Assembly (NCBI GenBank): GCA_905198355.1
Contig: CAJKCG010000001.1
Span: 52,347-116,346 of the forward strand
Length of the DNA stretch: 64,000 nt
DNA from: an uncultured Collinsella sp.
GTDB taxonomy: Bacteria; Actinomycetota; Coriobacteriia; Coriobacteriales; Coriobacteriaceae
Direction of reading: 5' to 3'
Positions 54,180 through 58,661 of the stretch are shown here, piece after piece (within the stretch, counting starts at the first letter, position 1; every line of letters begins with the position of its first letter). The notes under the pieces were generated by a model. That model did not search any database and was not told the DNA's origin. It saw nothing but the letters and a program-made list of their open reading frames with translations. The position numbers were made by a program, and so were the translations under genes.

Positions 54180-55148
54180 TTACTTAATCTTTGCCAGCAC
54201 ATCCTGAAACTTGGCGTAGTTGACCTTGACGCCGTCATCCAGGTCGATCTTGATCATCTGGTCTGCCAAGTGGTGAAGTTTCTCTTCATAGACAATGGTC
54301 TCTTTGAGCTGGTCGTTGAGCTTTTTGACGCGCTTATCCAAACGCACGCGCTCGCCGCGCTCGGCACTGGCAAGGGCATCGTTGGCATAGCCGATCTGGG
54401 CACGGTAGCGCTCCTGCTGCTCATGCACATAGTCGGTGCGGATGCGAGCCAACAGGTCGGGCTGATAGCGATGCATGTAAACAAGGCACTTGAAGCCATT
54501 CTTCTTGCCACTGTCGAACAGCCAGTAGATGGGGCGCTTCTTATAGGTCTGACAGTGGTCCTTAAAGAAATCCTTTAGGAAATAGGCACGAATCACCTCG
54601 CGCGAGGTACCCTTGCCGCCGAGCGCCTCGGCACTAAAGGCCAGGTTCTGCTCGAGCGTCTCCTCGCCATACACAGTGCGCACAAAGTCGATAAAGTAAC
54701 GCACGATGTCGTCATCAAAGTACTCGTCGTCGGTAATCGGCAGCACGTTGTCGCTATCGGGCATAAAGGCCACATGCGCCGGGTCGGGCATCTTGGCCAG
54801 ATAGTCGTTGACCGTGGCACCCTGATCGGCCAAGACCAGACCGTCCACGTCCAGCGAATAGCGGCCAAACATGCAGCCCACGGCATAGCTTATGAGCGAG
54901 GTGATCTCGTCGCGCTTAGTGCGCACGTATTTGTTGCCCTTATAGCTCTCGGGAATCTCGTCGGCGGTGTCGAAGATGCGCGCCACCGAGACGTACTTAT
55001 CCTCGACCTCGATGGGCACCTCCCCCTCCATGTTGTAGATCTTGGCAAAGATTCGGTTGAGCTCCTCCTCGTTAGCGCGAAGCTGCTCAAAGCGAGCATT
55101 AACCTCGGCCTTGCGGGCCTCGTATTTATCTTGAAGCAAAGTGGCCAT
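54180..55148 (-). CDS. pglX: PglX C-terminal fragment (last ~320 aa of the BREX methyltransferase)
   Basis: ...[27 protein letters not shown]... C-terminal PglX signature. Only 6 sense codons lie upstream before a stop. Own RBS GAAAGG. Confidence 0.65.
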   Translation of the reverse strand: [322 protein letters not shown]

Positions 55149-55324
55149 AACTACAGACCTTTCAATTTATCAATACAGTAGAAGTTAGAAAACCCGAGCC
55201 CATTCCATCAATCAATTAACACCAAGACTCGTGAGCTGAAAAACAGCGAAAGCCTTCCGATGCTCGACCGATATCTTCAGGACAAGTCTGGCTATCAATA
55301 AATCCCATAAGTGAGAGACGACAA

Positions 55325-55915
55325 CTACAATAAAGTCAATAAAAGATGGGACAGAAAAACGAATGCCATGATTAACGACAGAACAGTCAGGCCAGTTGAT
55401 ATTTTCAATCGCTTCCACATGTTGTTATGTTTCAAAAGGTAAGCCCGATAGGTAATGTTTAGGGAAGAGCAGTAGGACTTAAGCAAGTCCCGTTCCCTAA
55501 TTTGCCCGCCCTCGTCGCAAGCCTCTTTGTAAGTAGTCGAATACCTATCAAATTGTTCAGAAGGAGATGCGAGTGCAATATTGCTCCTTAAAAATATTGC
55601 ACTGACAGCTATAACAAGAGCACAGCCAAGAAGACCAAGAAGAATCAAATAGACAAACAGTATTTGCCTCGTTGAAATCCCATAAACTTCCTCAAGACCT
55701 TGAATATTTGAAATATAGTCGAGAGGTGCCAGGTACGCAACGGACAGAATCGTGATGGTAACCATAAGGTTATCAACGTAGCGATTTAAGCTATCCCCCC
55801 TCTCTTTTTCAAATTCAAGTGAGGAAAGAACAATGTCTCTCAAGTAATCGCTAATCTGCCCCTCCTTGGAGAGAGCGCTTTTATCGACGTCATGTCGCTT
55901 GTTCTTTTTGCCCAT
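55325..55915 (-). CDS. 3-TM membrane protein encoded in the AT-rich insertion within pglX (candidate abortive-infection-type effector)
   Basis: 196 aa from ATG with AAAGGTGA RBS; TM helices at ~55-70, ~95-118 and the C-terminus; region ~37% GC. Confidence 0.5.
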   Translation of the reverse strand: MGKKNKRHDVDKSALSKEGQISDYLRDIVLSSLEFEKERGDSLNRYVDNLMVTITILSVAYLAPLDYISNIQGLEEVYGISTRQILFVYLILLGLLGCALVIAVSAIFLRSNIALASPSEQFDRYSTTYKEACDEGGQIRERDLLKSYCSSLNITYRAYLLKHNNMWKRLKISTGLTVLSLIMAFVFLSHLLLTLL

Positions 55916-56076: not shown

Positions 56077-56144
56077 ATTTAATTTCAATCCAATCTATCC
56101 AATGACGTTCTTTTGTTAAAGATAGGTGAGTCCTAACAAGACAG

Positions 56145-58661
56145 CTAAATTAAAGGATGACGCTTGAAATCCCAAGAAGTTTCAAACGAGTCATAGTCAG
56201 CCTTTGAAATTGAGCGAGAGTCTTCAACGAGTGAACAAACAGTCGGTTCGGCGGCCTTATCTTGGATGATCGGTAACTGACCGATTTGGCCTACCTCAAA
56301 GTTTAGAGTCGGCGACATAAACGCCAAATCAATTTCGGCAATGGAACAGTTGCAGAAAGCCTGGATGTATCGAAGCTCGTTCGGCTCCGCAAAAAGACAT
56401 GCTCCAGCTACCTCAAAAAGCATCCCTCGAGGTGCAAACCTAAAGGAGGCGAGGCTGGAAGAAATTTTAGACCAGGAAACTGCGGGCTTGAAATAGTCGT
56501 TCTGGTTCTTGATCACAAAATCAGGTGTAGAGAGATAGGCATACTTGGACAGAATTGCCTCCTTCATCTCCCGACCGTCATCAAACCAATTAACCACCTC
56601 ATCGTAGTCACCCCACCACTTTCGATAGGAGCCGCCCCGAATAATCGGAAACCAACGGGAACCACTTTGCTTTGCCTCGGGCCTGCCACTGCAATCTCGC
56701 GATGTGTTGGAAGGCACCACTTCCCACCATTTCCTCAAAAAGCGGCCATTATCGCTCGTCGCCAAGCCCTGTCGCGGAGTAGCAATGGCATCGAGCCTCT
56801 TTCCTTTTGTGAACGATTCAACAAGAGCATCGCTGGCCCAGTAGGCTATGGGGCTGCCGGGGATCTGCTTGAAGGTCTCGGCGTCGCGGCGATAGAACCA
56901 GCCGCAGTCGGGGTTTCGGATCGCCTCGAGGGCCTTGGGAGCCTGGACAGCGGCGCCAACGAAGTCAGAAAGGCGCACGTAGCCTCCCTTGTAGCCCTTG
57001 ATGAGTGAGTTGTGAAACGTGTAGGTGCAGATGGGCACAGTCGCGCCAGCGAAGCCCGAGTACTCAAGTTGAATGAGGGAGGTAAGCGTTCTGTTGTCGA
57101 TAATCTCGTTGCGGAGCTTCTCATAGCTTCCGATGAACATCCAGACGAAAGGCGACATGACTCCGCACTCGCCGTGGTCCTTGGCGAGACTGAACATGCG
57201 AACGACAAAGCTGGAGAAGAGGTCGCTCTTCACGTCGGGGTAGTTCTTCTTGACCCACTTGCTCATAAAGGGGTTAAAGCTGCTGCTGCCCATATACGGA
57301 GGATTCGCCACGACGCAGGTAAAACGACGGGACAGTTTCTCGCAGATGGCGGCAGCGCATTCGAGCTTAGTTTTAGTCGCAGAAGCAAAAAGATCGTCGG
57401 AACAGCTCACGGCGGCGGCCTTAAGCTCGTCAATCTCGTCCTCTGAAGGATTAAGAAGCGAGCCGATCTCGCCCAAATGACTCAGCTCCTCGGCGAGCTT
57501 CTTGTTACCCGGCAGCTCGTCCTCCCCAAGCGGGATGCTCGAGAGCACGGTAACGTCGGCGCGAACGCCACGCCTAAAGAAGCGACGGTCGTGCTCGCGG
57601 GCGCACATGGCAAGCGCCAGCTCCGCGATCTGTGCCGCGCGGGAATCGATTTCCATACCTGCAAGGTTTTTAGTAAGAATGAGCTCGGGAATCTCGCGCT
57701 CACGATAGCCGCGCTCCTCGTACATATGAAAGAGCAGCTCAAACGCATAGACCAAGATATGGCCCGAGCCGCATACGGGGTCGCAGAGGGTTATCTCCTC
57801 GGGGCTCGAGATGCGGATGAAGTCCTCGTGCTCAGCATCGGGCTCGATGTAGTATTTCATGCGCTCGCGTAGCGAACTCCCCGGATTGTTGAGCATCCAC
57901 AGACGGCCGAGCGAGTTCTCGACCATATAGCGCACGATCCACTCGGGGGTGAAGAGCTGAGTGGCGGGAGCGATGTCCGCCGCTGCGGCCTTGCGCTTGG
58001 ACTTGAAGAACTCGTCTTTAACGTCAGCGTTGTAGTACTGATACATCCAGCCCAGAACGGTCACGCCCTCGCGCCAGTCCTCGTCAGTGAGGACAACATT
58101 GAGTTTGCCCACCACGCCGTCGGCCATCATGAGGCCCTGGGGCAACAGCAACTCCATGGCTCCGCCTACGCGATCAAAGACGCCTGGCAGGCAATCGGCA
58201 AGCTCCTCGCACTGAGCAACAAACAGGTAGCGCCACAACGGTTCATCCAAGCCCGCCATTTTGAGCTCGGCTATGCGATCGGTATCGGCCGTCGTTATCT
58301 CCACATCCAGTGCGTTCTCCACGGCCTCGCTGCCATGGCTGCCGTCCGCACGACTTAGCATGCGCATACGGCTGGGAAGCCATCCGCGTGCATCCATGAA
58401 GCGAATGGCCACGATGCGGTTGAACCAGGTGTAGGCCGCACGGTCGCGCAGCGCCTCGTGACCCACCTCTGCCTGCATGCGCAGTAGTTCGTCGCGTTGC
58501 TCAATCTCAGCCGGACTTAGGGGCAGGCCGTTGACGGTCTCGGAGCCAACGGGCGCGGGTGCAGGTTCGGTGATGCCGTAGCGCACCATCTGCGCCTCCA
58601 CGCCTTTGATGAGCTCCGTACGGGCCCAGGTGCAGAAACTCTTAAGAGCAGAATCGTTCAT
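56145..58661 (-). CDS. pglX: PglX N-terminal fragment (N6-adenine methyltransferase domain)
   Basis: 838 aa; VVANPPY catalytic motif and DPVCGSGH SAM-binding motif; ends ...ETSWDFKRHPLI followed by a stop. Confidence 0.8.
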   Translation of the reverse strand: MNDSALKSFCTWARTELIKGVEAQMVRYGITEPAPAPVGSETVNGLPLSPAEIEQRDELLRMQAEVGHEALRDRAAYTWFNRIVAIRFMDARGWLPSRMRMLSRADGSHGSEAVENALDVEITTADTDRIAELKMAGLDEPLWRYLFVAQCEELADCLPGVFDRVGGAMELLLPQGLMMADGVVGKLNVVLTDEDWREGVTVLGWMYQYYNADVKDEFFKSKRKAAAADIAPATQLFTPEWIVRYMVENSLGRLWMLNNPGSSLRERMKYYIEPDAEHEDFIRISSPEEITLCDPVCGSGHILVYAFELLFHMYEERGYREREIPELILTKNLAGMEIDSRAAQIAELALAMCAREHDRRFFRRGVRADVTVLSSIPLGEDELPGNKKLAEELSHLGEIGSLLNPSEDEIDELKAAAVSCSDDLFASATKTKLECAAAICEKLSRRFTCVVANPPYMGSSSFNPFMSKWVKKNYPDVKSDLFSSFVVRMFSLAKDHGECGVMSPFVWMFIGSYEKLRNEIIDNRTLTSLIQLEYSGFAGATVPICTYTFHNSLIKGYKGGYVRLSDFVGAAVQAPKALEAIRNPDCGWFYRRDAETFKQIPGSPIAYWASDALVESFTKGKRLDAIATPRQGLATSDNGRFLRKWWEVVPSNTSRDCSGRPEAKQSGSRWFPIIRGGSYRKWWGDYDEVVNWFDDGREMKEAILSKYAYLSTPDFVIKNQNDYFKPAVSWSKISSSLASFRFAPRGMLFEVAGACLFAEPNELRYIQAFCNCSIAEIDLAFMSPTLNFEVGQIGQLPIIQDKAAEPTVCSLVEDSRSISKADYDSFETSWDFKRHPLI

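Follow-up and report, generated by a model that had tools for sequence, protein, structure and literature searches.

A probably native two-gene PglX in the type 1 BREX operon of gut Collinsella, with a slot for exchangeable accessory genes between its parts

Introduction

Bacteriophage exclusion (BREX) systems are among the commonest phage defences, and the way in which they stop a phage is still unclear. The hallmark of their methyltransferase (MTase), PglX, is N6-methyladenine methylation of a 6-bp non-palindromic motif, which is required for defence. Restriction-modification (R-M) enzymes that assemble from separate subunits, such as HsdM and HsdS of type I systems, are well known. Here we describe a BREX operon located in a stretch of 64,000 nt of an uncultured Collinsella sp. 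(GenBank assembly GCA_905198355.1, contig CAJKCG010000001.1, positions 52,347 to 116,346 of the forward strand), in which pglX occurs as two genes, pglX-N and pglX-C, separated by an AT-rich cassette. This whole stretch is called the window below, and coordinates refer to it. Our results indicate that PglX is probably a natively two-piece enzyme in this genus and that the intergenic slot serves as an exchange site for accessory genes.

Several described systems come close to this arrangement. In Brevibacterium casei (NZ_CP068173.1), PglX is encoded by two coding sequences (CDSs), whose border lies where the variable part stops, and has been argued to be functional (Milman et al. 2023, PMC9881135); in the reading of its authors, varied specificity in the middle is combined with a constant C-terminus (PMC9881135). 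Defence genes nested in the same orientation within BREX, DISARM, Hma and type I R-M loci, e.g. BrxU and PARIS, have been collected under the principle of ‘guilt by embedding’ (bioRxiv 10.1101/2024.01.29.577857), and auxiliary or backup effectors have been reported in BREX loci (PMC12839542). The paradigm of a backup effector is PrrC, a latent toxin released when a phage disables the primary system (PMC3710099).

Organization of the operon

The BREX system of the window is of type 1 and complete. All six core genes, in the order brxA-brxB-brxC-pglX-pglZ-brxL, are present and co-oriented on the minus strand (49073-63819); pglX is found as two open reading frames (ORFs), both intact, as are all the remaining genes of the operon. 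In the direction of transcription, the features are as follows:

63169..63819, minus strand: brxA (Pfam BrxA, E=5e-32)
62475..63167, minus strand: brxB (Pfam BrxB, E=1e-31)
58728..62396, minus strand: brxC, 1222 aa (NCBIfam BREX_BrxC, 1075.8 bits, full length; PADLOC BrxC)
56145..58661, minus strand: pglX-N, 838 aa (NCBIfam NF033452, positions 1-899 of 1210, 856.6 bits)
56145..57236, minus strand: hypervariable part of pglX-N, aa 476-838, i.e. second half of the MTase domain and target recognition domain (TRD), delimited by column conservation, allele classes and lower G+C content
56077..56144, minus strand: leader of 68 nt from the pglX-N stop to the peptide gene, with promoter-like TTAACA-16-TAGATT at 56119-56092
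55930..56076, minus strand: gene of a Lys-rich 48-aa peptide, MSEKKKDDKKRKDEG..., ATG at 56076
55325..55915, minus strand: gene of a 196-aa protein with three predicted transmembrane (TM) helices, ATG at 55915, Shine-Dalgarno (SD) sequence AAGGTGA at 55927-55921
55149..55324, minus strand: non-coding cassette tail of 176 nt, whose final ~20 nt carry the SD sequence of pglX-C (GAAAGG at 55163-55158)
54180..55148, minus strand: pglX-C, 322 aa, remainder of the BREX-specific C-terminal domain (NF033452, positions 906-1209 of 1210, 386 bits)
51448..54156, minus strand: pglZ, 902 aa (TIGR02687, 417 bits)
49073..51445, minus strand: brxL, 790 aa (Pfam BrxL_N and BrxL_ATPase)

The two pieces of PglX and their junction

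A first-pass annotation, made from the letters of this stretch, had assigned the MTase motifs to the 838-aa ORF and the C-terminal signature of PglX to the 322-aa ORF, and both assignments hold. The former contains motif I as DPVCGSGH and motif IV as NPPY (within VVANPPYMG) and terminates in SWDFKRHPLI followed by TAG; these are the S-adenosylmethionine-binding motif I and the NPPY motif IV of gamma-class N6-adenine MTases, and the Pfam families Eco57I, MmeI_Mtase and N6_Mtase match pglX-N. The latter possesses the signature, and its reading frame is open for exactly 6 codons between an upstream TAA and its ATG. The junction was mapped against profiles and structures of intact PglX, as proposed in that annotation, and the pieces proved to be contiguous, with no overlap. 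In the NF033452 profile (1210 positions, cutoff 500 bits) pglX-N corresponds to positions 1-899 and pglX-C to positions 906-1209, and in the PADLOC PglX profile (1174 positions) to 1-869 and 877-1170, respectively. While pglX-N alone exceeds the NF033452 cutoff, pglX-C alone falls below it; the locus does not encode the single polypeptide of ~1200 aa that this profile describes, and two polypeptides jointly span it.

Alignment of pglX-N with Salmonella PglX extends to residue 885 of 1225, and residues 21-322 of pglX-C align with residues 892-1195 of E. coli BrxX (1205 aa), in which the TRD comprises residues 651-837 and the C-terminal domain residues 838-1205 (PMC11842806). By extrapolation from these alignments, the break would lie ~30 residues inside the C-terminal domain. 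The first piece comprises the N-terminal domain, the MTase domain, the TRD and the beginning of the C-terminal domain (approximately 30 residues), and the break point falls where the hypervariable specificity region ends. In BrxX, a double-helical spacer that mimics the coiled coil of HsdS is found downstream of the TRD (PMC12839542).

The pieces were originally described as separated by ~1 kb of DNA with ~37% G+C against a background of ~65%. The size and the low G+C content were correct but the percentages were not, as the gap of 996 bp has 41.0% G+C and the window 61.3%. This contrast is far above noise and recurs in every related locus examined, and the dip extends beyond the gap into pglX-N (52.6% in codons 476-838 and 46% in the last 150 codons). 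All slots (loci L004-L209) have a lower G+C content than the flanking BREX genes, irrespective of that of the host (34-66%).

Conservation of the split

When each GTDB species was represented by a single genome and scanned with pglX-C, 516 relatives were obtained, of which 80 were Collinsella loci. In these 80 species-level genomes, pglX-N is complete in 67 loci; its stop occupies the identical codon in every one of the 67, and in none are the two genes fused. A gap of 769-1314 bp follows this stop, and the pglX-C downstream of the gap is 96-98% identical to that of the window across the 80 loci. Strong purifying selection acts on pglX-C: the ratio of nonsynonymous to synonymous substitution rates (dN/dS) is 0.06, as against 0.11 for codons 1-470 of pglX-N and 0.12 for pglZ. 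An SD sequence with spacer precedes the pglX-C ATG in all 12 Collinsella cassette classes (see below), and in the alignment of this junction (~20 nt) the sequence GAAAGGRCGGYCYACC-ATG is closely alike in most of them. The first-pass annotation had itself named a two-gene arrangement that is conserved in related genomes as the ancestral state, with no AT-rich insert, as the observation that speaks against an interrupted gene. As regards the split, this is what the relatives show; even so, some AT-rich insert is present in every Collinsella locus.

The split extends far beyond the genus. A metagenome scan for W-D-F-K-R-H-P-L-x followed by a stop codon, which by design retrieves only split genes and shows the breadth of their occurrence, returned 120 loci. 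In many of these, pglX-N is 33-39% and pglX-C 41-63% identical to that of the window, and pglX-C still begins at residue 1; the G+C content of the DNA ranges from 34 to 66% and the gaps from 14 nt to 7.5 kb. One locus, L158, from an organism with ~37% G+C, has an empty slot (3691-3810): ...SWDFKRHPLV-TAG is followed by the 14 nt AGAAGGAGAAATTT, which contain AGGAG, and then by the pglX-C ATG. L158 is a minimal two-gene PglX. A homologue search with pglX-C that was aimed at fused relatives gave matches dominated by near-identical Collinsella sequences.

No terminal direct or inverted repeats and no target duplication were found around the gap, nor long inverted repeats around pglX, and an Rfam search that included introns and ribozymes gave only a chance miRNA match. 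The locus does not have the characters of a mobile element, intron or intein, and the slot ORFs are ordinary co-oriented genes. Taken together, the conserved break, the selection on both sides of it, the SD sequence of pglX-C, the distant split loci and the B. casei precedent exclude a recent inactivating insertion.

Public annotation gives little hint of this arrangement. The pglX-C homologues P0098 and P0109 are named ‘hypothetical protein’ (NCBI) or ‘type II R-M methylase subunit YeeA’ (JGI), and the N-terminal fragment is named PglX. Such names are uninformative for pglX-C, as none marks it as the second half of PglX.

Proposed function of the two-piece enzyme

We propose that the PglX of the Collinsella type 1 BREX operon is natively encoded as two polypeptides, PglX-N and PglX-C, which would reassemble non-covalently into a working enzyme. 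According to a reference cited in PMC11842806, mutations in the C-terminal part of Salmonella PglX selectively inactivate restriction, and for this reason a separate C-terminal subunit may link the enzyme to the rest of the BREX system.

In locus L181, which lies on metagenome contig OLxx and has a 4856-bp slot, two tandem pglX-N genes, ~40% identical over the compared part, accompany a single pglX-C. Each pglX-N is followed by a cassette (one with an RNxxAH protein, the other with a 162-aa protein), and pglX-C comes last. This suggests that two MTase-TRD subunits share one C-terminal subunit.

The widespread natural separation of the MTase-TRD unit from the BREX-specific C-terminal domain constitutes a ready-made genetic dissection of PglX, and might be helpful in determining which half is needed for methylation, restriction and inhibitor binding.

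The slot as an exchange site for cassettes

The gaps of the Collinsella loci fall into 12 classes, which have no sequence in common, have 41-48% G+C and each code for different co-oriented proteins. The slot content is wholly different between otherwise similar loci, with conserved flanks. The slots of 152 loci contain 56 ORF families, nearly all on the operon strand, of which a few look like spurious calls. In other words, the slot genes are nested between core genes, have the same orientation and vary between homologous loci, which are the properties of embedded genes. At no fewer than 66 of the 97 distinct slot starts an ORF begins at most 15 nt after the pglX-N stop, the TAG of which typically overlaps the SD sequence (TAGGTGA, TAGGAG).

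Upstream of the slot, column conservation of pglX-N is at least 0.91 up to aa 475 and then 0.47-0.86 (aa 476-838), and this variable part forms at least 17 allele classes that are 38-81% identical to one another. Cassettes and TRD alleles reassort: the TRD class of the window is found with three different cassettes, and single cassette classes are found with three different TRD classes. The mosaic break points lie within the TRD, the last ~38 codons of pglX-N move with the cassette, and the final ~40 nt of the gene, DSFETSWDFKRHPL, are conserved in DNA even across very different TRDs. Six loci share the cassette of the window at 99.6% nucleotide identity, although their brxC, pglX-C and pglZ genes are no more than 90-95% identical, which indicates that the cassette has spread recently between lineages. 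Exchange might proceed by homologous recombination, with the conserved MTase half, the ~40-nt end of pglX-N and pglX-C acting as arms. The 64-kb window contains no recombinase, repeats or second pglX copy, and its pglX does not have the features of a phase-variable (shufflon) gene. By swapping a segment of ~2 kb, gut Collinsella diversify both BREX specificity and accessory genes.

Many of the recognisable slot genes carry predicted defence or toxin domains. One of them is Shedu SduA (PADLOC 4.6e-70; Pfam SduA_C 4e-17), a sister cassette that belongs to a validated anti-phage system. HEPN_RiboL-PSP (4.9e-14) and Hypoth_Ymh (Pfam; a HEPN family according to PMC3710099) are present too, as well as Schlafen AlbA_2 with HATPase_c_4, Fic, AAA_21, SIR2_2 and Mrr_cat (all Pfam), FRG, DUF2971 and DUF3990, and weak matches to HipA_C and DUF3800 (the latter in Pfam). 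These genes might act as independent or backup defences that are expressed together with BREX. As most of the 56 ORF families are unannotated, the slot offers a compact and precisely bounded site for mining new defence and toxin genes.

Of the slot families, F0 is the commonest, with members in 66 loci and in five of the 12 Collinsella classes; it has an invariant R-N-x-x-A-H motif and sub-threshold matches to the pEK499_p136 HEPN family, which was reported next to Pgl components in 2013 (PMC3710099). As the assignment is based on the motif and these matches, we label the family only ‘HEPN-like’. Comparison by hhalign with the validated HEPN slot families gave no signal, and the validated families failed to match each other too. 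A single-sequence structure model of the protein, with a predicted local distance difference test (pLDDT) score of 45, was too poor for use.

In some loci, cassettes are stacked in one slot (L086 and L084). That of L086 (7219-11963) contains the genes of an HExxH protein, a peptide and TM protein module, a 527-aa protein and, on the opposite strand, a DUF3800 protein; in that of L084 there is also the gene of an Rx4H protein. Compared with the window, L086 has a pglX-N of 53% but a pglX-C of 92.5% identity, which points to recombination between distant BREX lineages. In another class (L016, L017, L028 and L063) the first slot ORF encodes a 190-aa protein with HEIGH (HExxH), a metallopeptidase-like motif, paired with a 187-aa LRNKLMHN (Rx4H) protein, and Pfam gave a match for neither.

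A DUF3800 protein is also encoded in the window, directly downstream of brxL (46572-47252, minus strand; Pfam 1.5e-06), and is 43% identical to that of the L086 slot, so the same accessory family occupies both the slot and the operon edge. Between it and brxL lies a 450-aa ORF (47627-48979, minus strand) with no match in Pfam, which may be a BREX-adjacent accessory gene.

The peptide/TM module of the window

The 196-aa gene has the ATG, the SD sequence and the three hydrophobic helices that were originally read in it; the Lys-rich peptide is present as well, with a length of 48 aa instead of 49. The TM protein corresponds to WP_118079635.1 of Collinsella sp. AM34-10 and was found on 967 contigs. 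Neither it nor the peptide matched any family in Pfam, NCBIfam, PADLOC or PHROG. The searches for SLATT, holin and Abi (abortive infection) families that had been recommended for the TM protein gave no matches, and it is not a member, by sequence or fold, of the known membrane effector families (SLATT, holin-like, RexB-like, CBASS/Pycsar TM effectors). A scan of IMG/VR with the alignment of its family revealed no viral relatives. The AlphaFold (AF2) model built from this alignment is confident and all-helical (pLDDT 84.6), and its structural neighbours are generic helical bundles only. The order of the segments predicts a cytoplasmic location for the first ~50 residues and for the loop of 55 residues that connects TM2 with TM3.

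An exhaustive profile search yielded 31 representatives of the family, 25-47% identical except for one near-identical copy and mostly 180-260 aa long, which share TILSVAYLTP in TM1, a conserved S-P after TM2 and KH..MW before TM3. For the distant homologues, four contexts were informative (L084, L086, L087 and L088), and in each of them the gene follows a split pglX-N. An ORF of 54-59 aa precedes the TM homologue in three of these four and in the short contig L085; in L084, L085 and L086 this small ORF has the same position, even though the TM homologues are only 31-35% identical. The homologue peptides have a loosely similar central motif, PV..G.P...T..Y, as read by eye. L088 has no small ORF, and its TM protein possesses an N-terminal extension of ~55 aa relative to the family. 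The family with its motifs, the contexts and the upstream peptide ORFs indicate that the peptide and the TM protein form a real, conserved two-gene module.

The peptide gene is intact in most copies of the cassette type found in the window. Both cassette genes contain homopolymers, A7 at ~56062-56068 in the peptide gene and G6 at ~55800 in the TM gene. In L003 a G7 tract shifts the frame of the TM gene, and in L104 the gap is 1 nt shorter and the peptide ORF is lost; these variants could be due to phase variation or to assembly error at low coverage. In L002 (1682-2206) the TM protein is shortened by an in-frame deletion of 66 bp, through which 22 residues of its predicted cytoplasmic loop are lost. 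Seeming TM-gene variants of 86-88% identity proved to be the same cassette with the 66-bp deletion or the poly-G frameshift, and as the distant homologues are saturated, dN/dS could not be computed for this gene.

The promoter-like sequence in the leader is weak and within chance expectation, a scan for promoters and terminators gave matches no commoner than in shuffled sequences, and neither the leader (68 nt) nor the tail (176 nt) has significant RNA structure (z +0.9 and -0.4, respectively).

Tentatively, and with slightly less than even confidence, we regard the module as a membrane-acting backup or abortive-infection effector that is expressed with BREX. In this view, the helical parts in the cytoplasm would serve as sensors of a signal and the TM helices would permeabilise the membrane, while the small peptide might be a partner or an inhibitor of the TM protein. 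Roles of other kinds share the remaining probability with the guard-type and addiction readings weighed below.

Weighing the readings

The first-pass annotation had offered three readings of the locus. The one that fits best is a functional two-piece PglX with an embedded module; the part of it that did not stand is the module as a fixed component of the enzyme, as the cassettes are interchangeable and the slot of L158 is empty. Several points weigh against a two-piece enzyme with an effector cassette. Purified Salmonella PglX without its entire C-terminal half failed to bind DNA, and this C-terminal half could not be expressed alone, although the cut point in that work was a different one (PMC11341690). 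Assembly of, and methylation by, the two Collinsella pieces are predicted from sequence, and no usable Collinsella methylome was found in the literature. The cassette of the window, with its 68-nt leader after the pglX-N stop, breaks the pattern of tight coupling, and its damaged copies (the frameshift in L003, the loss of the peptide ORF in L104 and the 66-bp deletion in L002) could reflect relaxed constraint or assembly error. Finally, as the TM protein belongs to no known effector family and has a generic fold, its function is deduced from context alone.

A membrane toxin of the Abi type restrained by the locus, another of the original readings, is possible. In a sharper form, the slot proteins would be wired to the two-piece PglX, silenced by it, and would fire once PglX is disabled or taken apart by an anti-BREX factor, for instance a DNA mimic of the Ocr type. 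This we consider rather unlikely. It would account for the short distance, at most 15 nt, between the pglX-N stop and the start of most slot genes, a spacing suggestive of stoichiometric co-synthesis, and for the presence of the TM family in the slot in every informative context, even at 50% pglX-N identity. Moreover, the slot adjoins the C-terminal domain, which is the Ocr-binding surface (PMC11341690, PMC11842806), and a second-line effector role has long been suggested for HEPN proteins within R-M and Pgl loci (PMC3710099). On the other hand, the slots hold dozens of unrelated folds, including the autonomous Shedu, and docking of all of them on one PglX surface is hard to picture; the slot of L158 is empty, and the cassette of the window is loosely coupled and may have its own promoter. 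The split itself might, in that case, be a purpose-built docking site, at which effectors made right after PglX-N monitor the assembly of PglX-N with PglX-C and trigger death or dormancy when anti-BREX proteins separate the pieces; this, too, we hold to be doubtful. Were it true, the guard principle of PrrC-EcoprrI would be extended to BREX, and the peptide/3-TM module would gain a defined trigger.

It is improbable that the peptide and the TM protein are an addiction module, i.e. a toxin-antitoxin-like pair that stabilises itself and the linked TRD allele and plays no role in phage defence. The layout, with a small gene immediately upstream of a membrane protein gene, would fit such a pair, the 99.6% identity of the cassette across diverged hosts is consistent with selfish spread, and Fic and HipA-like toxin domains occur in other slots. 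However, no known toxin-antitoxin family was matched in Pfam, NCBIfam or PADLOC, the context is exclusively a defence operon, and toxin-antitoxin and abortive-infection roles can coexist.

It does not seem credible that the slot proteins are obligatory BREX subunits, either adaptors joining PglX-N to PglX-C or the long-sought BREX executioner. They are present in all the Collinsella loci, co-oriented and usually tightly coupled to pglX-N, but non-homologous content between near-identical flanks, the empty slot of L158 and the ability of canonical single-gene PglX systems to work without slot proteins (PMC11842806) argue against it.

Hardly tenable, finally, is the original suggestion that a foreign cassette recently broke pglX and left a dead or decaying BREX system: AT-rich DNA does separate the halves of a normally single gene, and RefSeq/JGI annotations of close relatives name pglX-C a hypothetical protein or YeeA, but 67/67 Collinsella loci share the identical break point with BREX loci that are very distant, both halves have remained intact throughout (dN/dS 0.06-0.11), a dedicated SD sequence of pglX-C recurs across the cassette classes, and hallmarks of mobile elements were not found.

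Comparison with known systems

The precedents for this locus are one published PglX split and the established presence of defence genes embedded in BREX loci. As in B. casei, a BREX-1 PglX is encoded by one CDS for the N-terminal and variable middle parts, followed by one for the constant C-terminus. In B. casei, however, the variation arises by programmed inversions, whereas here there are no inverted pglX copies and strains vary by replacement of alleles and cassettes; moreover, the gap of the window carries unrelated accessory genes.

The slot genes resemble the known embedded BREX genes in that they are nested between core genes, co-oriented and diverse (HEPN, Schlafen, PD-(D/E)XK/Shedu and ABC ATPases) and in that they are proposed to act as second-line or complementary defences. 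Those described in bioRxiv 10.1101/2024.01.29.577857 and PMC12839542 lie between core genes, and text searches of the two papers gave no mention of a split (nor, for PMC12839542, of the words fragment, truncated, interrupt and disrupt). Tight coupling to an upstream gene fragment and co-variation with TRD alleles are described in neither, and the peptide/TM family matches no PADLOC model.

Like PrrC in the EcoprrI type Ic R-M locus, the cassette of the window lies inside a methylation-based defence operon. Unlike PrrC, which is an ABC-ATPase/HEPN RNase, its protein is a helical one with three TM segments, has no nuclease motif and lacks the ABC-ATPase/HEPN architecture. By its Pfam matches to MmeI_Mtase and Eco57I, PglX-N corresponds to the MTase-TRD unit of the MmeI family (type IIL). 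In contrast to the HsdM/HsdS division of type I R-M enzymes, the TRD remains with the MTase, and the part split off is not the specificity module but the BREX-specific C-terminal domain.

What is new is that the split is widespread and defines a precisely bounded cassette slot, which is mostly tightly coupled to pglX-N, that gut Collinsella reshuffle slot and specificity alleles, and that an unannotated peptide/3-TM family resides in it. We regard the locus not as a categorically new system but as an entry point for the dissection of PglX and the mining of defence genes.

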